Source of the DNA: an uncultured Chthonomonadaceae bacterium
GTDB taxonomy: Bacteria; Armatimonadota; Chthonomonadetes; Chthonomonadales; Chthonomonadaceae
Assembly: GCA_963817895.1 (NCBI GenBank)
Contig: CAWFQB010000006.1
Span: 320,001-384,000 of the forward strand
Direction: 5' to 3'
DNA length: 64,000 nucleotides
Made by a program: the position numbers and the translations under genes. Below are positions 48,653 through 62,009 of the stretch, piece after piece; positions within the stretch are counted from its first letter, which is position 1, and the number at the start of each line of letters is the position of its first letter. The notes below the pieces were generated by a model. The model was not told where the DNA came from, ran no database searches, and was given only the letters and a program-made list of their open reading frames with translations.

Positions 48653-51600
48653 ATGGCGTTTATCATACGGGATTTCGATTGGGAGGATGAGGAGCAGGCG
48701 GCGAAAGCGGCGACGATGTTCAACGATTGGGACAGCGTCTGGCCGGGAGGGTTTACGCGGGGCGTGCCTTCTACCGCCGCTAAAGTGCAGGAGGAGCATC
48801 GCCGCGCTTCCCATCTGGCCGTGCTTGTCGTGGAGCATGAGGGCGAGTTTGTCGGCTACTGCAATCTGGAAGCCGCGCCGGGGCAGAAAGACGTTTCGTA
48901 TATCGGCTTGCTCGGCGCGAACGAAAAGGTACATGGCAAGGGCGTCGGCAAGATGCTGCTGCGCGAGATGATACGCCGCGTCACCGAATTTGGTTATAAA
49001 CAGGTGACGTTGGGAACGTGGGCAGGCAATACCAAAGCGGTTCCCCTGTACAAGAAGACCGGCTTCAATTGGATTCCCGAAACCGATGTGTTCATGCGCA
49101 ACTTCATTCCCGGCCTGCTGGCTATGCCGCTTGTGCAAACGTTTTTGGATGGCAGGGATTGGTACGACTGTCTGGAGCGCGACTTGACCGTTGCGCCGGA
49201 TGATGTGACATGGAACGGCATGAAGGTGTACCCCTATCGGTTCCGCAACGGCGAACGCACTCCTGGAACTCTGGTTCGACCGGGCAGGGGAGGGATTGAC
49301 CGCGCTGGAAACGCCCGAAGTCGCGCTGGCCTGCCTGTTCCCGTTCGAGGACGCGCCGGGAGGACAGGCGTATCCGGTTATATGGGAAGCAAGAGCCAAA
49401 AACGGCGCGAGTTTGGACGCTGTATTGATGGCCGAGGGGGAAACCGGACTGGCATTGAGCGTTCAGGAGCGATTCAGCGGGACGGATACAATGCGAATTG
49501 AACGCGAACTTGCGCTCGGACAGCAGCCTTGCGCCGAAAAAGGGCGACGTGTCCACATACGCCATTAAAACGACGTTTCTGCTGCATGGACAGCCGCTTG
49601 TTTTTTCCACGGGCGTTCATGTGGTTCGGCCTGTGGAGATTGGCTATACGGGACAGCGGCTGTTGCCCGGACGCGAGGAGCAGATACGAGTCAGTCTGCG
49701 CAACCGGCTGGATCGCGATCTGGAAGGAACGCTGACGCTTGCGGCGCATCCCGATTTGCAATGCGCCGCGCCCTCGCAGCCGCTGCTTCTGCCCGCGAAA
49801 TCGTGGACGGAGTGTGTTTTTGCCGTCACCGCCAACACGCCGGGAGTGAAACAAACGCGCCTGATTTGCGAGGCGGAAGAGGTTCGACTGGAACATCCGC
49901 TCACATTCCGCGCCCTGCCTGACAATGGCGTGCTTGGCAGCGTGGATGCGCCCAACGAATACGCGGTACTGGAATCGCGGGAACTGCACATTGGCGTAAA
50001 TATGCGCGGCGGGGGCATGAGCGTCAGCCACGCGCCTAATATGCAAGGATTGCTGCACCTGTCTATGCCCACTGTGGGGCCGCCATTTACGCATGGCTGG
50101 CTGCGCAAGCGACTGGTGGAGTGTCGCGTGGAAAGCGCATCGGGCGGCGACAGCCTGATTGTGACGGAAGCCGTTCAATCCCTGCCGAATTTACAGGTGG
50201 AGCGGCGCATTACATTGTTGGGCAATGTGGCCCGTCTGGATTGCATCGTGAGGAATAGCGGCAGTGTTGCCGTTCCGGTCAAAGTTCGTATCCGTTCCTC
50301 ATCATGGTTAAAAGAATTCATCACGGCTCCGCTGGTATCGGGGCTGATACGCGAACCCATGCAAACCCTGAGCGAGTACCCGATGGACGAACACGACATA
50401 CTGGCGCAGGGAGCAACCCTTGCCGAAAACTGGATCGCGTGTGAAGGGGAAGGCATGGTATCGGGGCTTGTCTTCGAGGGCAGTCCTGAACAGGATATGG
50501 AGTGGACGGAACTGGTTCAGCCCACGTACGATCTGGGCGAAATTCCTCGCGTATGGCGATGAAGACCCTGCCCACGATGTATGCGGTTGGAGGCGCGGGA
50601 ACATGGAAAACCGTGCGCGATGCGTGGAAAATGCTGGTGCAGCCGTCCGGCGTGATAGAAACGGAAGCGCCACAACCCGAACGTGTCTTGCAGGTGAAAA
50701 TTACGCCTGATTTGCTCACGGAAATAGAGCAAACAGTGAATGTAACCGTGACCAACAATCGCGAAGCCGGTTTGAGCGGAACCTTGCGATTGACGGGTAC
50801 GGTTCATTGCGAACCTGAAGAAATCGCGCTGAACGATGTAAACCGGGATCGGCCTATGGTGGCTTCCGTTAAAGTTGGTTTGTCGAACATACCGGGGGCG
50901 CGGCTGATAACGGCGCAGATTGACGCGGTTCCCGTGCCGCAAACGCGCGTGATTGGCGTGGCGAACCTGGGACGGGGCAGTCTGGTTCGCGTGTCGCAGC
51001 CGGATGCCGCGCATATTGACGTACATAACGGGCATCTGAGTTTTCGGGTCGCGCCCGCGTATGCGGGCGCAATAGTCAGCCTGGAACGGTTGGGCGTCAA
51101 CCATTTACGCTCGTCTTACCCCACTCCCCAACCCCTCCTGTGGGTGAATCCCTGGTATGGCGGCCTGCATCCGTATATCGGCTGGATAGGCTACCCGCGT
51201 TTGACGCGTGAAACATTCACGGGCGAACCCATAGCGCGAACGGGAGAAACGGGACTGGCGTGGCAGGGAGCGCGAGTGGTCTGCGAACCCAAACACAAAG
51301 ACCTGACATGGCTGCGCGTGGAAGCCGAGTACCTGACATGCGGCGGCAGCAATGTGGTCGCCCTTGTCACGCGCTGGACAAACAAGACCACTGCAACGAT
51401 GCAGGTTCCGGGTAACGGCGGCATCGGGGCGTGGCTGCAAGTGGGCGGCACACATGAAAACGCCGTCGTACACGCGGACATCAGCGGCGAACGGCAGATA
51501 CGGCGGCGCGGCGGCTTCGGCTTGAATACCTATCAGGGCGCGTGGAAAGCGGTGGAAAACGGCCAATCCGGGCAAACGCTTCTCATGGTAACGACCGGGA

Positions 51601-51779
51601 ACAGCAAAGCGGCAGTACACGATTTCGCAGGCGAGGGGGCGCACCTGAGCGCGGAATTCGCCCTGACCCTACAGCCCAACGAAACGCGGGAGCATCTGGC
51701 ATGGCTCGTCCTGATGCAGAATACATACGAATTGGATGCGTATGTTGCCGCCTTATCTCTGCACAAGAGGCTGCCGTAG
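48653..51779 (+). CDS. Large GNAT-family N-acetyltransferase with a beta-rich C-terminal extension; frameshifts near 49260, 49490 and 50530
   Basis: HGKGVGKMLL acetyl-CoA motif, TWAGNTKAVPLYKKTGF; downstream ORFs continue in shifted frames. Confidence 0.8.
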
Positions 51780-51837
51780 GGTGTTGGCGCTGTTTATTCC
51801 TTAACGGAACCCCCTGTCCTCGCTTCAAAACATCACA

Positions 51838-52027
51838 GTAGGGGCGCTGCTTGCTGCGCCCTCTATCACTCTTCCGTTGCGCTTTGCTGCGCCCTCTATC
51901 ACTCTTCCGTTGCGGTTTGCTGCACCGTGTGACATTCTACTGTTGCTGCTTGCTGCGCCCTCTATCACTCTTCCGTTGCGGCTTGTTACGCTCGTTGGCA
52001 GCAGGGCGCAGCAAGCAGCGCCCCTAC
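51838..52027. repeat. GTAG-type REPIN with three internal copies of GCTGCGCCCTCTATCACTCTTCCGTTGCG
   Basis: GTAGGGGCGCTGCTTGCTGCGCCCT ... AGGGCGCAGCAAGCAGCGCCCCTAC. Confidence 0.85.
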
Positions 52028-52032
52028 TCTGA

Positions 52033-52692
52033 TTACGTGACTTCGACGATGCCAAGCGGTATCATCGTTGTCATTTGCCCGGTGTTGCTGTTGACGAAGC
52101 GGCAGGCGCAGGCGTACCAGCCGGGGGCAGTGGGCAGGGCATGGGTGAGGAGAGTGGACGTGAACGCGACGAACGCGGCGGATTTATAAAAAGGGACGGG
52201 CGAACGGCGGGGCGTTTTTAGTTTCTGGACGAGCAGTTCTACGCGGGTATCAGGCGAATTGGCCGCGCTTGCCGTAAAGAGGAGTTGGCCGGTTTCGCCG
52301 GTTAAAATGAGGGTTACGAGATCGCCAAAGTAGGGGGATATGGGCGGCGCGGGGGGTACGGTTCCGGTCGGATTGATCTGTAAGAACTTGGACGCGAGGC
52401 CGACAAAGACGTTCTGCCCGGTGGGATGATAGGGCGCGTTGTCCGGGTCCCCGGAGCGCGTGAGCGTACTGGCATAGGCGTTCCACTGCATCGCCTGTTC
52501 GCGTGTCAGCGTGTTGTATGAAGCCATAACCTGCGCCATGCGGTTCTGAATCGTCTGCTGAATGGGCTGCGTGGGGCGTTTGTAGGTGGGACGCCCGCGC
52601 AGCACAAGGCCGTTCCGCCCTTCAACCGCAACCTCATTGCCAATTTTACCCCGTACCTGCGTTAGTAAGGGGCCGGGTGTCGCTTTTGCCAT
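52033..52692 (-). CDS. Hypothetical protein, paralog A (basic N-terminus RGKIGN, Ig-like C-terminus)
   Basis: GGAG RBS; shares VFVGLA.KFLQINPTGTVP and RFVN..TGQ with 61347..62009. Confidence 0.8.
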   Translation of the reverse strand: MAKATPGPLLTQVRGKIGNEVAVEGRNGLVLRGRPTYKRPTQPIQQTIQNRMAQVMASYNTLTREQAMQWNAYASTLTRSGDPDNAPYHPTGQNVFVGLASKFLQINPTGTVPPAPPISPYFGDLVTLILTGETGQLLFTASAANSPDTRVELLVQKLKTPRRSPVPFYKSAAFVAFTSTLLTHALPTAPGWYACACRFVNSNTGQMTTMIPLGIVEVT

Positions 52693-52782
52693 GTCGTAAT
52701 TCTCCGGTAAATGTCAGGCTGAAAGGCTGTGTTACGGGGAATTATGGCGAAATGCGCGGGCGACTTTAGGATTGAAAACCGG

Positions 52783-52892
52783 TTTCACTCCGATTAACCG
52801 CCCACTCAACGCCGTATCAACTCCCTATTAAACGTGTGTTAAACAGGGAGTTCACAGGGAAATGAATGGGTGGTGAATGGGTGTGACGGGAG
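52783..52892. repeat. Long imperfect palindrome with ~11-bp internal periodicity
   Basis: Centre AACTCCCT-ATTAAAC-GTGT-GTTAAAC-AGGGAGTT; GGG tracts end at 52848, 52859, 52870 and 52881. Confidence 0.6.
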
Positions 52893-52901
52893 GTTCGGGA
52901 T

Positions 52902-53603
52902 TTAGCGCGGGGAGCGACGACGTAGCCGCCGCGTCAGGAAACCGGCTGCCGTCAGGCCGCCCGCGAACACAAGCGCCACGCTGCCGGGTTCGGGCACGGC
53001 AGCCACGTTGAGGCGCACCGTGTTGATGGCGATGTTACCGAGAGATCCGGGCGGATTGACGAGGCCGAAGGTAATGCTGGCAATGTTGGGCGTAGTGTCC
53101 AGAATGCCGATGAAGATGGCCGAACCGTCGTTGTTGTTGTTGGATACACCATTTTCCGTCACAACGCCCAGGCTGTTGCCATTCGCGTCAAAGGCTTCTA
53201 AGGAGGCCGTGAAAGCGCCTAACCTATCTTGCTGAATGTTTGCGCCCGCGCCCATAAGCGGCGCAGTAAACGTCAGGGTGATCGGGAAGTAGTTGAGCCG
53301 ATTGGTGGAAACCACATGGTCACCGGGCGTGAAGTTACCGCGAAAACCGCTGCCCTGATCCACACGGATGAATCCGGTTGAATCGGTTGTGCTGAGGGAA
53401 GCGGACAGGCCGTTGGTCGAAGTGACGGCGGCGGGGGTGGGAAAGGCTGTGCCATCGGGGCCAAGCTGTCCGAAGTCAATGGTGTCGTTGACGCCGAGGG
53501 CGGCGGGCGCGGTGACAAGAACCTGCGCGCGAACGGGCGTGGCAAGCGCGAGGGCGGCCAGGCCGAGCAGACCGGGCAGAAGCAAAGCAGAGTGGCGGTT
53601 CAT
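52902..53603 (-). CDS. PEP-CTERM sorting domain protein 5
   Basis: Signal peptide VRA-Q, C-terminal AVPEPGSVAL + TM + RRLRRR. Confidence 0.92.
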   Translation of the reverse strand: MNRHSALLLPGLLGLAALALATPVRAQVLVTAPAALGVNDTIDFGQLGPDGTAFPTPAAVTSTNGLSASLSTTDSTGFIRVDQGSGFRGNFTPGDHVVSTNRLNYFPITLTFTAPLMGAGANIQQDRLGAFTASLEAFDANGNSLGVVTENGVSNNNNDGSAIFIGILDTTPNIASITFGLVNPPGSLGNIAINTVRLNVAAVPEPGSVALVFAGGLTAAGFLTRRLRRRSPR

Positions 53604-53733
53604 AAGAGCAAACATTCCTTTCATCAGGAGAATCGCACGGGAAGGGAAACGCTCTTGCGGCGCGTTCGCCACAAGGGACGCATCGGCGCAGCCGCAGGCG
53701 TTTGGGGCGGGCGAAGGCTTCTACGTATTACTA

Positions 53734-53750
53734 TTGCAAGAATCGTGCCA
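53734..53750 (-). promoter_or_regulatory. sigma54 promoter of PEP-CTERM gene 5
   Basis: Minus strand TGGCACGATTCTTGCAA, consensus -24/-12. Confidence 0.8.
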
Positions 53751-53821
53751 AATCATGCGAAAGGGAGGCGAACGGAGCAAAAACGCGCAAAAGCCTGTCT
53801 TTTTGCGAGGTGGGAGCCTGG

Positions 53822-54013
53822 ACCCTCATCCGTCGGGGGCCACGCTTCTCCCTTTCAGGGCGAAGGCAAGTATGGTAGTTGAGTGCGTAGATAAGGAGGT
53901 ACGGAGTGAACATAGAAAAAGCGCGCGTCATTCCAGGCTTTCATCAACGCGCCCGATGAGCAATTTAGCCTTCGCCCTTGCAGGGAGAAGGTGGCCGGAG
54001 GCCGGATGAGGGT
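53822..54013. repeat. 192-bp REPIN-like element, copy 1 (diverged)
   Basis: ACCCTCATCCG... left arm and ...GGGAGAAGGTGGCCGGAGGCCGGATGAGGGT right arm. Confidence 0.8.
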
Positions 54014-54018
54014 AGAGC

Positions 54019-54714
54019 CTACCGTTTTGCCCGCAGCAGCGTCTCAATGTCGGAACGGCGGTACCATTGCGCAAGTATGAGGGGAGTCCTGTCATACTGA
54101 TTACGCGCATACGGGTCGGCTCCATACGCCAAGAGCAGACGTACAATTTCTCTATCGGAGCCAATCCTGGCGGCGTAATGCAAGGCTGTACTTCCTTCTC
54201 TATCCGTCGGCGTTACGCTTGCGCCATGCTCCAGAAGAAAGCGCGTGGTATGCGGATGCTTGTTGAGGATGGCATAGAACAGAGCCGTATATTTGTCTTC
54301 GCTTATTGCTTCTATATCCGCGCCATGGGCAATCATCGCCTGCACGAGCGGCACATCGTCCGGGGACAGAGAAAGCGTTAGGTGCTGTGTTAGTTCCTGG
54401 AAACTCACACCTCCGCAGGCAAGTTGAAGCGCGGTAGGACTGTCATTAGCAACAGGTCGCGAGCGGCGCAGGAGTTGGCGGAACAGTTGCGGGAGAGTGG
54501 GAGGCGGCGACGCTTCCCGACGAGTGTTCGGGTCGGCTCCAGCATTGACGAGTGCGAGCGCGGCTTTGCTGTCGTGGTGGGCAAGGGCGGCAATCAGTTG
54601 CCGATTAAGCGCGTACTGCCGTTTCGCCTGCCACACCCAAACGCCGCTCGCGCCGACAACCGCCAGAACGAGTATCAACAACAGCAGTAACGAACGTCGC
54701 GCTTTCTTCATCAT
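54019..54714 (-). CDS. Membrane-anchored ankyrin-repeat protein 1
   Basis: N-terminal TM helix, GADPN, TALFYA, TALHYAA, TPL ankyrin motifs. Confidence 0.9.
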   Translation of the reverse strand: MMKKARRSLLLLLILVLAVVGASGVWVWQAKRQYALNRQLIAALAHHDSKAALALVNAGADPNTRREASPPPTLPQLFRQLLRRSRPVANDSPTALQLACGGVSFQELTQHLTLSLSPDDVPLVQAMIAHGADIEAISEDKYTALFYAILNKHPHTTRFLLEHGASVTPTDREGSTALHYAARIGSDREIVRLLLAYGADPYARNQYDRTPLILAQWYRRSDIETLLRAKR

Positions 54715-54767
54715 CGGTTCCTCCACACGTATTGTACCCGCAGTTTCATGTGGAAACCGGGGATTGG

Positions 54768-54959
54768 ACCCTCATCCGGCCTCCGGCCACCTTCTCCCTG
54801 CAAGGGAGAAGGCGAATGTGGCAGTCTGGCGCGAGGAATAGGGGATTGCTTTGTGCGCAGCACCGCCGTACTTACAGCCCAAGTCTCCGTCCAACCGGGC
54901 ATTGAACAATTTCGCCTTCGCCCTTGCAGGGAGAAGGTGGCCGGAGGCCGGATGAGGGT
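54768..54959. repeat. 192-bp REPIN-like element, copy 2
   Basis: ACCCTCATCCGGCCTCCGGCCACCTTCTCCCTGCAAGGG arms in inverted orientation. Confidence 0.9.
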
Positions 54960-54964
54960 AGAGT

Positions 54965-55756
54965 CTACCGTTTCCCCCGCAGCAGGCGCACAAGGTCGGA
55001 ACGCTGTTCCTTTTGCGCAAGTGTGAGAGGGCTTTCACCATCCTTGTTACGCGCATTGGGGTCGGCTCCATGCGCCAGAAGCATACCGATAATACGAGGA
55101 TCGGCGTCATCAGCTATCGCGCAATACAAGGCTGTGTTTCCTGGCCCATCCGCCATATCAACATTTGCGCCATGCTCCAGAAGGCAATGCATGGTGTCCA
55201 CATCACAGCCCGCAACAGCAAACATCAGCGGCGTTTCGCCGTATGGTTCAGGCGCATTGACGTTCGCGCCAGACGCCAGCAGTAATTGCGCGATATGTGG
55301 ATGCTTCCACCGAACGGCATAGAACAGTGCCGTTCGTCCGTCCTCATCTGTTGCCTGAACATCCCCGCCATGAACCAGCATCGCCTGCACAAATGTCGCA
55401 TCGTCCGGGGAATGGTAATCCGTTATGTCCTCTGGCGTCCACTCCGTAGGTACGCCTCCGCAGGCGATGTGAAACGCAGTGGTACTGTCATTGACAACGG
55501 GCGGCGAGCGGCGCAGGAGTTGGCACAACAGTTGCGGGAGGGTGGGAGGAGGCGAGGCTTCCTGACGAGTGTTCGGGTCGGCTCCGGCATTGACGAGAGC
55601 TAGCGCGGCCTTGTTGTCGTGGCGGACAAGGGCATCAATGAACTGTCGGTTGCGGGTGTATTGTCGTTTCGCCTGCCATATGCACAACCCTCCCGCGCCG
55701 ACAACGGCCAGCACGATTACCAACAACAGCAGTAACGAACGTCGCGCTTTCTTCAT
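54965..55756 (-). CDS. Membrane-anchored ankyrin-repeat protein 2 (paralog of protein 1, one more repeat)
   Basis: True start MKKARRSLLLLL at 55756 after a GAGG RBS; TALFYA, ETPLMFA, TALYCA, SPL motifs. Confidence 0.9.
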   Translation of the reverse strand: MKKARRSLLLLLVIVLAVVGAGGLCIWQAKRQYTRNRQFIDALVRHDNKAALALVNAGADPNTRQEASPPPTLPQLLCQLLRRSPPVVNDSTTAFHIACGGVPTEWTPEDITDYHSPDDATFVQAMLVHGGDVQATDEDGRTALFYAVRWKHPHIAQLLLASGANVNAPEPYGETPLMFAVAGCDVDTMHCLLEHGANVDMADGPGNTALYCAIADDADPRIIGMLLAHGADPNARNKDGESPLTLAQKEQRSDLVRLLRGKR

Positions 55757-55801
55757 TGTCGGTTCCTCTCCACGTATTGTACCTGCGAACCAGGAGTTTC
55801 T

Positions 55802-55993
55802 ACCCTCATCCGGCCTCCGGCCACCTTCTCCCTGCAAGGGAGAAGGCGAATGTGGCAGTCTGGCGCGAGGAATAGGGGATTGCTTTGTGCGCAGCACTGC
55901 GGTATTTACCGCCCAAGTCTCCGTCCAACCGGGCATTGAACAATTTCGCCTTCGCCCTTGCAGGGAGAAGGTGGCCGGAGGCCGGATGAGGGT
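55802..55993. repeat. 192-bp REPIN-like element, copy 3 (near-identical to copy 2)
   Basis: Direct comparison with 54768-54959 shows only a few substitutions in the spacer. Confidence 0.9.
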
Positions 55994-56075
55994 CCAATCT
56001 TTCGTCCGCACCCTCCCGCAACCGTCACAATGCACACAAGGGAAAAAGAGAACAGAACGGGTGTGCCATAAGAAC

Positions 56076-59000
56076 TCACCCGGACGCCGCAGCAGAAGCC
56101 GAAGCCTCCACATACGCGCAAACCGTCCACAACGCGTCCCATATTGCATCGGCCACAGAATGATACGGTGTAAATCCAGGCATAGTCTCGTTAATAGAAG
56201 CTCCCATTGCCTGAAACAAAAATTGTTGAACGCTAATGAAGTTGACCGCATCACACGAGGTAGAACGTCGTGTGAAAAGTTTCGTGAGTGATTCGGCGGC
56301 AGAAGCGCGCACATTTTTGTCTTCATCCTTGCAGGCGTGGAGCAGGGCGCTGACCACTTCCCCGGAACTCTGTCCCGTCTGTCCCAGGGCTTGTACGGCA
56401 GAAGCGCGCACATTTTTGTCTTCATCCTTGCAGGCGTGGAGCAGGGCGCTGACCACTTCCCCGGAACTCTGTCCCAACCGCCCCAGGGCTTGTACGGCAT
56501 ACCGGCGCACATTTTTGTCTTCATCCTTGCAGGCGTGGAGCAGGGCGCTGACCACTTCCCCGGAACTCTGTCCCAACCGCCCCAGGGCTTGTACGGCAGA
56601 CCAGCGCACATTGTTGTCTTCATCGTTGAGGGCGTGGAGCAGGGCGCTGACCACTTCCCCGGAACTCTGTCCCGTCTGTCCCAGGGCTTCTACGGCAGAC
56701 CAGCGCACATTGTTGTCTTCATCGTTGAGGGCGTGGAGCAGGGCGCTGACCACTTCCCCGGAACTCTGTCCCGTCTGTCCCAGGGCTTCTACGGCAGAAG
56801 CGCGCACATTTTTGTCTTCATCCTTGCAGGCGTGGAGCAGGGCGCTGACCACTTCCCCGGAACTCTGTCCCGTCTGTCCCAGGGCTTGTACGGCATACCG
56901 GCGCACATTGTTGTCTTCATCCTTGCAGGCGTGGAGCAGGGCGCTGACCACTTCCCCGGAACTCTGTCCCAACCGCCCCAGGGCTTGTACGGCAGAAGCG
57001 CGCACATTTTTGTCTTCATCCTTGCAGGCGTGGAGCAGGGCGCTGACCACTTCCCCGGAACTCTGTCCCAACCGCCCCAGGGCTTCTACGGCATACCGGC
57101 GCACATTGTTGTCTTCATCGTTGAGGGCGTGGAGCAGGGCGCTGACCACTTCCCCGGAACTCTGTCCCGTCTGTCCCAGGGCTTCTACGGCATACCGGCG
57201 CACATTGTTGTCTTCATCGTTGAGGGCGTGGAGCAGCAGTCGGGTTGTTTCCCTGCCTGCTTCCGTGTCGCCCAAATAGGCCATACGCGCCAGGAGGCGT
57301 TCGCGTAATGGCCGGTATTTGCCTGCGCCAGTCCTATCCATATACAGGGACACCAGTTTCCCCGCCACATCACGAATCAAACTCGTTTCGGCTCCGGCGC
57401 AGTCGCCCAGACAGTGCGCGGCGAACAGCAAATCGCGGTGCAGCACATTCTCGTAAGCGCCTGGCTGAAACCCTTCCTCCTGCGCTTCTTCCCCTTGCGC
57501 AAGAATGGCCGAACGTATCAGGTCACTGGCATATTCCGGGCGGCTCTTGCTTTCATAGCCGATGGCAAGCAGTATTGGCTCCTCCCAACGGGGCTGATGC
57601 CGATGCTTATAAATGGTTTTTGCAGTGGTCTTATAGCGCCGCAGCAGTTCGCGCCCGACATAATATTCCTCAAACGTCAGGTGCATGAAGCCAAAGTAGC
57701 CCGGCGCGCGTTCCACAAACAGGCCTGTATGCTCCCGAACGCGCCGCAAAAAGTCGTCAACCGCTTTCGTTACCTCTTCGCCGTCCGGTTCCTTGCCCCG
57801 CTGCTTTGCCAGCAGGTCGGCGAGATGCTCCTGCACGTCGCGCTTGCTCGCCATTCCCGTCGGCTTTGTCTCGTGCAGCCACAGGGCGAGGGGGCCGAGC
57901 AAGCGCAATGCCTCGTCTTCTTCCACGCACTGTACGCCCGGAATCCCCCGGTGCAGCTGCCAATCCCGCAGCAGGGTTTGCGTGGCGAGTTCGTACAACT
58001 CCACGCGACGACGAGGCATGTGCGCGCCGTTGCGCTTGATAAGACACAGAATCGTCAGCAGGAGGGGATTGGTTGCCAGTCGGCGAACACCAAGATTGTC
58101 TTGCAGTGCGCGTTCCACGTCGGCCACTTCCACCGTCGCCCTATCCTGTACATCGCTTTCGGGAGCATCGGGCGTCAGATGGCGTTCGTAGGCGAGGCAC
58201 CAGCGTTGCAGGAAGCGATGGATTTGCTCCGTCTCCATATCCTCTAGCGTGAACTCGGCAAACTCACTGCCAAGCGGCGCGATGCGATACCCGGCAATGC
58301 GGCTTGTCACCAGAAAGCGGTTGCCCGGATTGGCGGATACAAATTCGTCAATGCGGGTGGCAATCTGCGCCCGGTCGCCGGGAGCAATGACTTCATCCAG
58401 GCCGTCCAGAAGCACAAATGCCCGTTTTGCGCGCAGGGCATCATCGAACAGCCTTTGCAGCTTCTCCGGCGCCATATTCAGTTCATCAAATGCGAGGGGC
58501 AGAAACCGGCGCAAACTCGTGGCGGGATGTTCCCTGAGATATTCGGCGTAGCGGGAAATGCGAACGAAAATCGGCAGGCAGGCTTCGCCATACTCCTCGT
58601 TTTCCGCATCCCGCACGATTGTTTCATTCTGCTGCACCGCCCGCGCGAAATGCAGTGCCAGAAAGCGCATCAGCGTAGTTTTGCCCGCGCCCGGATCGCC
58701 CAATACCACCATACGCGCATTGGCCTTCACCGCTACGGGCAGTTCGACGCTTTCCGTCCGCTTCTCCTGCGCTTTCAGTTGAAACCGTTCTAACTCCCGC
58801 TGCTCCCATTCGTCAAACAATTCCGTCTCATAATCGCGCCCCGGCTTGTTAAAGCGGTCGCGCGTCCACGTTCGTTCCACCTGCCGTTCCGCTTTGAGCG
58901 ACACGTATACTTCGTCCAGTTTCAGCATCGCCGAGCGCGTCGTCTGCATCACGCCGCGCGGGTCCATGTACTCATTGCGCCGAAGGATGTAGTCGAGATA

Positions 59001-59723
59001 GAACGCGCTGTCAAGGGTCAAAAACCGGTGAAGGTCGCCTGAGAAGGAAACGACCGGGTTACTCTCCTCTTCGTCGCAGTTGCGGCCAAGCGCGGCAAGC
59101 GCGATATTACGCTGCTGTCGGAACTCGCTGACGTGGTAGGCAGGCAGATTGGGACGGGTCAACATTTCGTCATAGCGGCGCACATCACGGCGGTAATCTT
59201 CAGCCTCTTCCAGCGTCAGCCTGCCAATGGCCGTTGTCGCAATTTCTGCATTACAATCCAATGGCAGTTCAATGGTCGCATCGCGCCACGCGGCGAAGTC
59301 GGGAGCCTGTTGCAGTAACTCTTGAAAAATCTGACTTGAAACCCAGAGGATTAACGCTGCCTGTGAATCGCGGACATCCTCACGATGGTTGTTGAGCAGT
59401 TCCAGTGCGGTCTGATAGTCGTCCGTGGGGCGATCCGCGAGGGCTTCCAGACCATACGCGCAGACGCATACCGGCAACTCGCGGCGTGGGATACTGCGGC
59501 AAAATCGGGGCAGGCTGCGCTGTTCCGTCTGCGCGTAATCGAATTCGCGCAGATACCGCTGCCCGCTGAGACGTTCCCCCAACTCGGCGATAGCTTCCCG
59601 GCGCAGCATCAGGTTTTCAACCAGGACAAAAACAATATGGGAACGCTCTTCATCGCGCAGCGCGTTCTCAATCTGCTGCATGGCCTCGGCTATCTGTGGA
59701 TTTGTTGTAAAAACAGGGTTCAT
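56076..59723 (-). CDS. NACHT NTPase with C-terminal HEAT repeats and an N-terminal degenerate P-loop-like domain (NLR-like)
   Basis: VVLGDPGAGKTT Walker A, LLDGLDE Walker B, VTSR, NPLLL, FMHLTFEEY, PRWEEP, then DED.NVR..AV.ALG repeats. Confidence 0.92.
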   Translation of the reverse strand: MNPVFTTNPQIAEAMQQIENALRDEERSHIVFVLVENLMLRREAIAELGERLSGQRYLREFDYAQTEQRSLPRFCRSIPRRELPVCVCAYGLEALADRPTDDYQTALELLNNHREDVRDSQAALILWVSSQIFQELLQQAPDFAAWRDATIELPLDCNAEIATTAIGRLTLEEAEDYRRDVRRYDEMLTRPNLPAYHVSEFRQQRNIALAALGRNCDEEESNPVVSFSGDLHRFLTLDSAFYLDYILRRNEYMDPRGVMQTTRSAMLKLDEVYVSLKAERQVERTWTRDRFNKPGRDYETELFDEWEQRELERFQLKAQEKRTESVELPVAVKANARMVVLGDPGAGKTTLMRFLALHFARAVQQNETIVRDAENEEYGEACLPIFVRISRYAEYLREHPATSLRRFLPLAFDELNMAPEKLQRLFDDALRAKRAFVLLDGLDEVIAPGDRAQIATRIDEFVSANPGNRFLVTSRIAGYRIAPLGSEFAEFTLEDMETEQIHRFLQRWCLAYERHLTPDAPESDVQDRATVEVADVERALQDNLGVRRLATNPLLLTILCLIKRNGAHMPRRRVELYELATQTLLRDWQLHRGIPGVQCVEEDEALRLLGPLALWLHETKPTGMASKRDVQEHLADLLAKQRGKEPDGEEVTKAVDDFLRRVREHTGLFVERAPGYFGFMHLTFEEYYVGRELLRRYKTTAKTIYKHRHQPRWEEPILLAIGYESKSRPEYASDLIRSAILAQGEEAQEEGFQPGAYENVLHRDLLFAAHCLGDCAGAETSLIRDVAGKLVSLYMDRTGAGKYRPLRERLLARMAYLGDTEAGRETTRLLLHALNDEDNNVRRYAVEALGQTGQSSGEVVSALLHALNDEDNNVRRYAVEALGRLGQSSGEVVSALLHACKDEDKNVRASAVQALGRLGQSSGEVVSALLHACKDEDNNVRRYAVQALGQTGQSSGEVVSALLHACKDEDKNVRASAVEALGQTGQSSGEVVSALLHALNDEDNNVRWSAVEALGQTGQSSGEVVSALLHALNDEDNNVRWSAVQALGRLGQSSGEVVSALLHACKDEDKNVRRYAVQALGRLGQSSGEVVSALLHACKDEDKNVRASAVQALGQTGQSSGEVVSALLHACKDEDKNVRASAAESLTKLFTRRSTSCDAVNFISVQQFLFQAMGASINETMPGFTPYHSVADAIWDALWTVCAYVEASASAAASG
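56297..57236 (-). repeat. Tandem 99-bp (33-aa) HEAT repeats: 9 complete plus 1 partial
   Basis: GCAGGGCGCTGACCACTTCCCCGGAACTCTGTCC recurs every 99 bp. Confidence 0.95.
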
Positions 59724-59735
59724 CGTCTTGCCATT

Positions 59736-61046
59736 CTATACCAACTCATCCCATATAAGCGGATGCGCGTCGAACCAGGTGCGGGAATTCTGATAGGCGA
59801 CAATCAGCAAAGCGTGAAGCAGGTCGGCGCACTCCTTGTTTTGCGATGGCTTTTTGGCCTCATGTACCCTTTTCAATTCCGCCGTATTCTCGATGGTCAG
59901 GCGGCGCGTGTATTCGGCAAGCAGTTTGTCTACCGCTGTCTGCGCCGCCTGCATGGTAATGCTATCCAAGCCCTTCTGTTCGGCGTAGCGGCAGGCGTCT
60001 TCCACGAGACGAATCAGCCAGCGTAGCACCCCTCCGCTTTTGAAGATCAACAAGTCGAGGGTATCTTTCTCGAACAACTTCTCCTCAGTCAATCCGACAG
60101 TCAGCAGCCGCTTGGTCACAACTTCGCGCAGTTCCGCATACCCCTTCTCATAGCGCGTCTCCTGATTAGTGCGATGATAAAGGCGAATGTTGGGCAGAAA
60201 GTAACATTCCGCGCTGGTTTCCACTTCGCCGAAAGCCAGCGATGTGTAAACCAACATGGGAACTGTGTAGATGATACGGCACAGAGGAGATTGAAGCGCG
60301 GTGCTGTTGATAAACAGTTCATTGGCCTGTTCCTGCCGCTGTATCTTGTCCAGGTCGTCTACGATAACCAGCAAAGGCTTCCCGATGACATCTTCCACTT
60401 CGGCAATAATCAGGTTGATGCGTCTGAGAATATTCGGAATTTGCGGCTCGACCGGGCGGGTACGCAGAATTTCTTCCGTCACGCCGGAGGAAATTTTGAA
60501 TATTTTACCCATCCCATCCGCCAGCATTTTACCTACGCTAGACCCTGCCATTCCGGCTGTCACTATTAACAACTTCTGCGCCAACTCTACGAGATTGAGA
60601 GATTGATCCCTTACTGTCTCTTTGTCGTTATAAGTGATGGCATAAACGGCTTCGCCCAGGTCTTGCAGCAGTTCCTTGTTGATTGCGTAACCTTCCTGTA
60701 CAGCTGCCTGAAAAATTGTCGTACCGAGAAGTAACAGCAGGTCAATGAGATTGGCTTTGGGACTATCGAGATTGTGCGTGATGTTCACGTAAACGACAAA
60801 ATAGTCCTCATTGAAGTGGTCGCGCAGCTTAAACAGCAGAGAACTTTTGCCGCTTCCACGATGCCCAGTAAAGAAAGCGACAGGCGGCTTTGTGGGCTGT
60901 TCTTCCTTCCGCAATACCATAACCATATCGTCAAATGGGCTATGTTCTCGTGGGCAGTACAGAGTTCGGCTACGCTCTCCTGCAAGAACCTCCGAAGGGT
61001 CGAACGCTCGGTAAAGCTGTAACCAGAACTGTGTAGGGTGAGGCAT
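59736..61046 (-). CDS. P-loop ATPase (AAA/STAND-like) co-transcribed with the NACHT-HEAT gene
   Basis: FTGHRGSGKS Walker A, LVIVDDLDK Walker B, SGGVLR, C-terminal WFDAHPLI; AAAGGA RBS before ATG 61046. Confidence 0.88.
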   Translation of the reverse strand: MPHPTQFWLQLYRAFDPSEVLAGERSRTLYCPREHSPFDDMVMVLRKEEQPTKPPVAFFTGHRGSGKSSLLFKLRDHFNEDYFVVYVNITHNLDSPKANLIDLLLLLGTTIFQAAVQEGYAINKELLQDLGEAVYAITYNDKETVRDQSLNLVELAQKLLIVTAGMAGSSVGKMLADGMGKIFKISSGVTEEILRTRPVEPQIPNILRRINLIIAEVEDVIGKPLLVIVDDLDKIQRQEQANELFINSTALQSPLCRIIYTVPMLVYTSLAFGEVETSAECYFLPNIRLYHRTNQETRYEKGYAELREVVTKRLLTVGLTEEKLFEKDTLDLLIFKSGGVLRWLIRLVEDACRYAEQKGLDSITMQAAQTAVDKLLAEYTRRLTIENTAELKRVHEAKKPSQNKECADLLHALLIVAYQNSRTWFDAHPLIWDELV

Positions 61047-61346
61047 GGCAAGGTTCCTTTGCAACAGAGGATTTGATAATAGTCCTGAACACATTATACT
61101 AAAATGGTTGAGTCCTGTCAATGAGAGCAAGCGCTGTTCCAAAATCAAACACATGGCTCTATTTCTATTATGTTGTAAACGAACAGAGTACGAAACTTCA
61201 ATGTCGTGGTTAAGCGCGAAATTACCTACACTGCCTGCTTCTTCCGAACATTTGTAGCGTCACCCTCAAGAGAAAACGATCATTAGCCACAATCTAATGC
61301 AATTCGCTCAACAGGGAGCAATACAGTAATTCTGAGGAGGAAAATC

Positions 61347-62009
61347 GTGGCGAAAGTGGTGTTTGCTGCCGACATTCAGGCGATGCGGGGCAAGATGGGC
61401 AACAGTGTTTTCAGTCGGGCGCGGAACGGCAACACCGTGCGTACCCGCGTCAAGGGCAAGAACCCGCGCACGTCTGCGCAGACCGGCGTTCGGTCGAATT
61501 TCAGCAAGGCCGCCACGTCGTATAAAAACATGACGCCGGCACAGGTGAGCGCGTGGCAGGTGTACGCGGCGGGGCAGATCAAGCACGATAGCCTTTCCGG
61601 GCTGAGTTACGTGCCGTCCGGCAATACGGTCTTTGTAGGACTGGCAGCCAAGTTCCTGCAAATCAACCCGACCGGAACCGTACCCGTCACGCCGCCCACA
61701 GCCGCCTTTTCCGGGGACAGCATCACGGTCACGGCAGCGGGAAGCAGCGGCAAAGTGATCTTTACGGGCAGCGGCAACAACAGCGCGAACATCAAAACGG
61801 AATTACTGCTCCAGCCACTGAAAAGCCAGAACCGAGCCGCCGCCAATAATGGCTACCGCAGCAAAGGCTTTATCGCGTTTGCCGGTACCAGCCTGGCACA
61901 GAATGTCACCGTACCCGCCGGCTTTTACGTGCCTGCGTATCGGTTTGTGAATACGCTGACCGGACAGGAATCGCTACTCGTCACCCTGCCTGTCGCGCAG
62001 GCTACCTGA
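61347..62009 (+). CDS. Hypothetical protein, paralog B (basic N-terminus RGKMGN, Ig-like C-terminus)
   Basis: GAGGAGG RBS before GTG; shared motifs with 52033..52692. Confidence 0.82.
   Translation: MAKVVFAADIQAMRGKMGNSVFSRARNGNTVRTRVKGKNPRTSAQTGVRSNFSKAATSYKNMTPAQVSAWQVYAAGQIKHDSLSGLSYVPSGNTVFVGLAAKFLQINPTGTVPVTPPTAAFSGDSITVTAAGSSGKVIFTGSGNNSANIKTELLLQPLKSQNRAAANNGYRSKGFIAFAGTSLAQNVTVPAGFYVPAYRFVNTLTGQESLLVTLPVAQAT

Follow-up and report, generated by a model that had tools for sequence, protein, structure and literature searches.

What are two genes of no recognised family doing at the ends of a small block of accessory genes, when they are copies of one another and both are read away from it? 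The question is raised by a 64,000-nucleotide stretch of DNA from an uncultured Chthonomonadaceae bacterium of the phylum Armatimonadota (contig CAWFQB010000006.1, positions 320,001 to 384,000 of the forward strand), which is referred to below as the window. The two genes, here called A and B, are:

52033..52692 (-): type A bookend gene, 219 aa, of the faster-evolving subfamily
61347..62009 (+), GTG start: type B bookend gene, 220 aa, with a predicted basic N-terminal domain (1-113) and a fibronectin type III (FN3)-like sandwich (118-220)

Outward-facing pairs of A and B

A sequence-only reading of the window had listed these two open reading frames (ORFs) as colinear paralogs of 219 and 220 aa. 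Coordinates, lengths and colinearity were all borne out, the two proteins aligning end to end with 83/220 identities (38%, E 2e-51), and the motifs quoted as shared turn out to be conserved columns of the family alignment. The Arg/Lys-rich N-terminus that it described is equally evident, residues 1-60 comprising 13 K+R versus 1 D+E in type B and 9 K+R versus 2 D+E in type A. By eye, neither protein has a signal peptide. As to the number of paralogs, these two were the only copies of the family found by tblastn in the genome (7.48 Mb, 81% complete), and a six-frame scan with a hidden Markov model (HMM) of 124 sequences returned the same two, the next match having an E of 0.8. Neither protein could be assigned to any family of Pfam, PHROGs, NCBIfam or PADLOC, the family itself was unmatched in PADLOC at 1e-20 and in a plasmid collection, and the best match in a sequence search of the PDB had an E of only 0.028, with a resemblance to the HMG-box (SSRP1) at E 0.6. 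The family is nevertheless large, with 2,351 cluster representatives matching at E up to 1e-3, and the closest homologues of the pair are found in Chthonomonadales and Fimbriimonadales.

The bracketing noted in the window proved to be a conserved architecture when neighbourhoods were compared. Among neighbouring full-length copies lying at most 16 kb apart in Armatimonadota, 16/20 face outward, two inward and two are in tandem. Bracketing is therefore more than chance, 25% being expected to face outward (binomial p 4e-7, a value which overstates the case because the 10 genomes with outward pairs are related). This count excludes fragment pairs (L038, L050, and two fragments in L184 and L190) and a distant tandem in L192. 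The family tree divides into A (30 sequences) and B (41), a split with UFBoot 83 and SH-aLRT 99; this tree omits five distant sequences, its bootstrap had not fully settled, and the two groups were defined from an earlier tree. With leave-pair-out profiles, 15/15 outward pairs were found to consist of one A and one B, as does the pair L205, which was found later. In the window, the gene at 52033 is the A member and that at 61347 the B member. The pairing is conserved over two orders, and the units measure 1.9 to 15.2 kb. Many A genes look leaderless, and many B genes have a long leader and a ribosome-binding site; no structure common to the long leaders was found.

The outward A+B architecture itself is, we are confident, real. 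It is apparently undescribed: a literature search covering papers outside subscription turned up none on it or on the family. The sequence-only reading contained neither the fixed A+B pairing nor two features described below, the variable cargo rich in defence genes and the promoters of flagellin type. A DNA-inversion switch was considered and rejected, there being no recombinase and no long inverted repeats common to the inner ends.

Two features of the proteins may be added. A K/R-A-A tail, which we take to resemble a ClpX degradation tag, ends 29/76 copies, many of them of type B (e.g. L055, L071, L188 and L191), and is lacking in the window copies. Low-complexity or repeat-like inserts are found in frame where the FN3-like domain begins (P0086, P0106, P0145 and P0149; L083:2442-3167 and L185:9393-10217), and since several members carry them, the loop at this point tolerates insertions.

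Cargo and its turnover

The block enclosed in the window holds what had been listed for it, namely PEP-CTERM-like, ankyrin, NACHT-HEAT and P-loop ATPase genes, and, as had also been said, no replication or packaging genes within it. Its features, with a repeat beside gene A, are:

51813..52010: 33-nt tandem repeat, just past the stop codon of A
52902..53624 (-): PEP-CTERM-like protein (PF07589 at E 0.014, below the cut-off; start from the gene caller)
53807-54025, 54753-54971 and 55787-56005: three inverted-repeat units of about 219 nt resembling repetitive extragenic palindromes (REP-like), also dispersed in the genome
54019..54714 (-): ankyrin-repeat protein 1
54965..55750 (-): ankyrin-repeat protein 2, its 5' part with 83% DNA identity to protein 1
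56076..59723 (-): NACHT NTPase with 99-nt HEAT repeats, of STAND/NLR-like type; in L039 and L042 a homologue adjoins a family gene
59736..61154 (-): P-loop ATPase, upstream of the NACHT gene; the same pair in L042

The REP-like repeats that separate the block genes are common across the genome.

Cargo differs from one pair to the next. The scan took in about 190 of the roughly 270 neighbours called, and defence-type cargo was recognised in 11/16 outward pairs, with restriction-modification (RM), CRISPR, STAND and TIR systems among them. The cargos are:

Window pair: NACHT and ATPase
L083: methyltransferase, HD-CE, ORC-CDC6-like and CARF
L084: TIR
L085: kinase (generic)
L185: BglII-like RM
L186: nSTAND1
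L187: type I RM
L188: type I-C CRISPR-Cas operon
L189: type I RM and MNT-HEPN
L190: type II RM
L191: type III RM and Panacea antitoxin

A PADLOC match (1e-20) lies near 16/36 loci, pairs and singles together, versus 3/20 random 7.7-kb windows (p 0.039), and when generic repeat and kinase models are set aside the figures are 12/36 versus 1/20 (p 0.02). The GC content of the cargo is lower than that of the flanks in 13/14 units measured. The sequence-only reading had considered a partnership of the two proteins with the NLR-like pair. This is not borne out as a specific relationship: NACHT neighbours do recur (L039, L042, L044 and L053), yet most pairs enclose other genes, and because cargo changes from pair to pair the NLR-like system of the window is better seen as cargo than as a fixed partner. 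A likeness between cargo remnants of L185 and L205, seen by eye, was rejected after blastp failed to support it.

The A+B pair offers an easy way to mark defence hotspots in a phylum that has hardly been studied. Cargo nearly without Pfam or PADLOC match was seen at L031:8828-15939, L184:1613-6044, L073:8274-9797 and L191:3627-10949. The cargos of L031, L073 and L184 and parts of that of L191 become candidates for new anti-phage defence systems.

In outline this recalls the P4/P2 defence hotspots, described in PMC9122126 and PMC13586616 as small, high-turnover loci between two conserved genes. There the anchors are psu/int or other genes within a full satellite or prophage. In the A/B islands, by contrast, the anchors are two outward paralogs of one family, at many loci per genome and with host flagellin-type promoters. 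Variable cargo between conserved genes was found here too, in the 16 outward pairs with their 11 defence-type cargos; no Pfam match indicating an enclosing satellite or prophage, with integrase and core genes, was seen in the scanned cargo and flanks. Since no satellite or prophage surrounds them, the A-cargo-B units are not members of the P4/P2 hotspots. They resemble phage satellites, such as the phage-inducible chromosomal islands (PICIs) and the PICMIs, in being non-autonomous and carrying defences, and differ from them in that integrase, primase or Rep, terminase, HK97 capsid and att repeats were not found. Some satellites, the cf-PICIs, encode their own capsid proteins.

Homologues occur in 10/61 relatives and 18/301 genomes of the phylum, with up to 14 copies in one genome (G208; 3.2 Mb) and no homologue in two congeners. 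Recent copies have only promoter and ORF in common, the likeness ending near the stop codon and the surroundings being new. Spread therefore looks mobile, given such copies in new surroundings, the multiple copies, the patchy distribution and the foreign cargo. Synonymous changes outnumber non-synonymous ones in 2/3 recent duplicates, and the family also includes gene fragments and one copy interrupted by an internal stop. No public RNA run was listed as a holder, and one public DNA sequencing run (share 0.08) yielded only scattered short contigs.

Promoters, relatives and predicted fold

Upstream regions of the family genes have a bipartite motif in common, which resembles that of the flagellins, stands at promoter spacing and is presumably of the sigma-28 (FliA) type. 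With the sigma-28 consensus, at most three mismatches were found for 26/47 family copies versus 8/406 control genes. With a matrix built from 14/23 flagellin upstream regions and seeded with that consensus, 24/47 copies versus 15/406 controls score at least 10 bits, the top-scoring control gene beginning, in our judgement, like FliM. A second set gave at least 10 bits for 9/24 close copies, and each of the five distant copies from mobile elements scores between -2.1 and 3.7 bits. In 20/55 copies the end of the -10 box is separated from the start codon by 7-9 nt, a spacing that fits leaderless transcripts. The two sites in the window are:

52741..52771 (-): flagellin-type (sigma-28-like) promoter motif for A, 10.0 bits
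61263..61293 (+): flagellin-type promoter motif for B, 9.2 bits

Each of these sites taken alone is moderate, because background rates are 0.033 and 0.054 per 250 nt. Flagellin is present in 10/10 carriers versus 32/51 other genomes among the relatives, and in 14/14 close-type carriers versus 52/70 genomes of the same families in a phylum sample that overlaps with the first. Two FliA/WhiG genes are present in G000. These results would connect the ends of defence islands with the control of flagellar genes.

Relatives of the family point to small virus-like elements. Distant full-length relatives lie in small integrated elements of G233, G071 and G265 (HHalign 99.2% over 161 columns), those in elements with a serine recombinase or Rep_1 match at E 5e-20 to 1e-16, and in G150 a relative stands near a Rep_1 gene. 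The scanned elements L192 and L193 both have a serine recombinase; L192 further encodes a thermonuclease, an IrrE-like peptidase, a helix-turn-helix (HTH) repressor and an HTH_17 protein, and it is accompanied by defence-type genes. In a side observation, L192:9496-17795, L193:4449-12560 and L194 were seen to combine serine recombinase, repressor, IrrE-like peptidase, an M15-like ORF (in L192 a call by eye, since there is no Pfam match at 1e-3), a Pro-rich protein and the family gene. The thermonuclease is present in L192 and L194, the flanking defence-type genes of the group include HipA-like kinase with DUF3037, DUF4007 and DndB, and these elements are a candidate new group of temperate non-tailed viruses. 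In G023, a 4,379-bp segment is present twice with 99.8% identity (L036:8568-12946 and L037:7882-12260) and holds an M15 peptidase, a small ORF and, judged by eye, a PLD-like ORF, together with a malectin ORF and a B gene of 49% identity. No Rep or integrase was seen inside it, and an IS110 adjoins one copy. The malectin ORF overlaps the end of the B gene in another frame and is a possible frameshift extension of B.

N-terminal homologues were found in two small genomes that also encode an HUH Rep, one in MW202486 (L052; 4.6 kb, circular) and three paralogous ones in OP209177 (L051; 8 kb), with E from 5e-5 to 4e-4 at Z=1e6. Unlike the A/B islands, these are autonomous and have same-strand copies without bookending. 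No capsid, portal or terminase family was found among their scanned ORFs, and the matches of their large ORFs were confined to Rep, to methylase or PAPS-reductase, and to DUF6266-like proteins. The Inoviridae label of MW202486 is doubtful, since none of the four large ORFs scanned matches Zot, and the Caudoviricetes label of OP209177 looks doubtful as well. Because a large unannotated family is tied in this way to small virus-like elements lacking a recognised capsid gene, its members are, by homology, candidate coat proteins. Known proviral relatives are present as one copy or as tandem copies, never as outward pairs.

The sequence-only reading had compared the N-terminus with DUF6266 and with structural proteins of small non-tailed phages. 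A remote link to DUF6266 (PF19781) does exist through the first ~60 residues, in the basic motif, along with a likeness in length: ORF2 of OP209177 matches DUF6266 (E 6e-5) and the family HMM alike, and an Atlas comparison gave unnamed clusters of mostly viral records at 0.95-0.97 and DUF6266 at 0.90-0.93, values to be taken as leads only. By the Pfam gathering cut-off (23.4 bits), however, the proteins are not DUF6266, a score which neither of the two, none of 20 aligned members and nothing in the genome reaches, PF19781 giving 0/20 matches to those members even at E up to 1. The phage comparison likewise stands as far as relatives in small non-tailed virus-like elements are concerned and does not extend to a recognised capsid fold.

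The model of the type B protein has a mean pLDDT of 89. An FN3-like sandwich is predicted for its residues 118-220 (Z 9.5 and rmsd 2.7 across 92 residues), the top Foldseek match of the protein being an FN3 domain at E 3e-4; the C-terminus had been called beta-rich, which this agrees with, although the sandwich is no recognised capsid fold. Residues 1-113, folded alone, give four strands and three helices (pLDDT 89) and have no clear counterpart among solved structures (best Z 4.4). Among predicted viral structures, an uncharacterised 'virus sp. ctQiC1' protein matches best (E 0.01). Adnavirus nucleocapsid proteins of the SIRV2/SIFV type are paralogous heterodimers, and they provide a working analogy, in which two helical, basic subunits that are paralogs wind DNA into a filament. 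SIFV (6wq2_A) gives a structural match of only Z 4.1 (rmsd 5.2, 53 residues, among unrelated rows), and the FN3-like domain is extra relative to those proteins.

Nature of the islands

The reading that we prefer, with a probability of about 0.4, is that A and B encode coat-like subunits at the ends of a helper-dependent, non-autonomous defence island. The two genes would be the fixed ends of a small variable island with mostly defence-type genes, and their products two virus-derived DNA-coating subunits, which would rely on outside help to package or escort the island for its transfer. Both genes would be switched on by the flagellar sigma factor of the host. The major subunit may come from B, with its long leader and ribosome-binding site, and the minor one from A, which often lacks a leader. 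DNA would presumably be bound by the basic N-terminal domain, and the FN3-like domain would point outward. A helper Rep or recombinase would be needed for excision or copying, because the island encodes neither. The span of the units could fit in a filament. If A and B do coat and help to move the islands, this would be a new route by which bacteria exchange defences. A more specific form of this reading, which we consider unlikely, makes A-cargo-B a new class of minimal satellite that has kept only its two coat subunits. The coat would be a DUF6266-related protein of unrecognised small, probably filamentous, non-tailed viruses, switched on by the host flagellar sigma factor, and defence systems (type I and III RM, CRISPR I-C and STAND) would be shuttled among Armatimonadota in length-flexible particles.

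A number of results weigh against coat-like subunits on a transferable island. None of the relatives is shown here to be a virion protein, no structural match to known capsid folds (HK97, jelly-roll, inovirus pVIII and SIRV2) stands out, and the small Rep-encoding circles could be plasmids. No integrase, transposase, Rep or lysin was found among the cargo proteins scanned, the Pfam scans of cargo and flanks covering ORFs from about 90 aa upward and the flank genes other than some distal ones. The longest words common to both flanks, where att-type direct repeats would be expected, have 7-10 nt in 13/14 units, the exception being a 29-nt word in L040 that is a REP-like repeat. No shared origin or packaging signal or conserved synonymous-site cis element was found, the Rep PF23343 is present in 0/5 pair-bearing genomes, scans of IMG/VR yielded no member of the family, and no empty site was found in relatives, synteny with the congeners being too broken. 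Many copies are single or fragmentary, in five of the 16 pairs (L031, L073, L184, L205 and the empty L040) no defence cargo was recognised, and host flagellar sigma control accords equally with a domesticated and with a mobile gene.

This last point leads to a different explanation, which we hold to be quite possible if short of probable: A and B may be virus-derived DNA-binding host proteins, domesticated as defence factors, made in the flagellated state, which coat or jam incoming viral DNA and anchor a recombination hotspot without forming any particle. The host-type promoter motif (24/47 versus 15/406), the placing of the -10 box 7-9 nt from the start codon in 20/55 copies, the five distant mobile-element copies without the motif (-2.1 to 3.7 bits) and flagellin in 14/14 close-type carriers versus 52/70 would all follow, as would PADLOC matches near 16/36 loci versus 3/20 random windows, the failure to find mobility genes and the excess of synonymous changes in 2/3 recent duplicates. 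Domestication alone, however, leaves unexplained the strict outward A+B pairing at many unrelated loci and the 14 copies in 3.2 Mb, and the family has no PADLOC match at 1e-20. It is improbable that the proteins belong to the flagellum, exported through its channel without a signal peptide and decorating the filament, for example to mask phage receptors, with the defence neighbours secondary. Such a role would suit the flagellin-type promoters and co-occurrence with flagellin, the two FliA/WhiG genes of G000 and the FN3-like domain, but 32/42 flagellated relatives do without the gene, flagellar genes were unseen among the scanned neighbours, and distant relatives reside in genomes without a flagellin match (G071, G233 and G150) and in Rep-encoding circles. 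Least probable, and in our view very unlikely, is that the genes are functionless leftover ends of decayed small proviruses. According to PMC13586616, decayed satellites can leave defence genes behind, and fragments and one internal-stop copy of the family are known. Against such relics, most copies still have their full length of about 220 aa and their promoters, conservation of the pairing spans two orders, and single or tandem copies, not outward pairs, are what known proviral relatives contain.

Two further observations stand apart from the islands. At 48653-51779 (+) of the window a GNAT-domain gene is divided over three ORFs, where the congener G002 has a single frame of 1,045 codons; frameshifts are the probable cause, and assembly errors possibly so. 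A motif scan of IMG/VR gave 50 loci (L114-L163), mostly of an unrelated small basic phage protein and none matching the family HMM, and this short protein has the common word N-P-x-T-x-A-Q-x-x-x-R-x-x-F.

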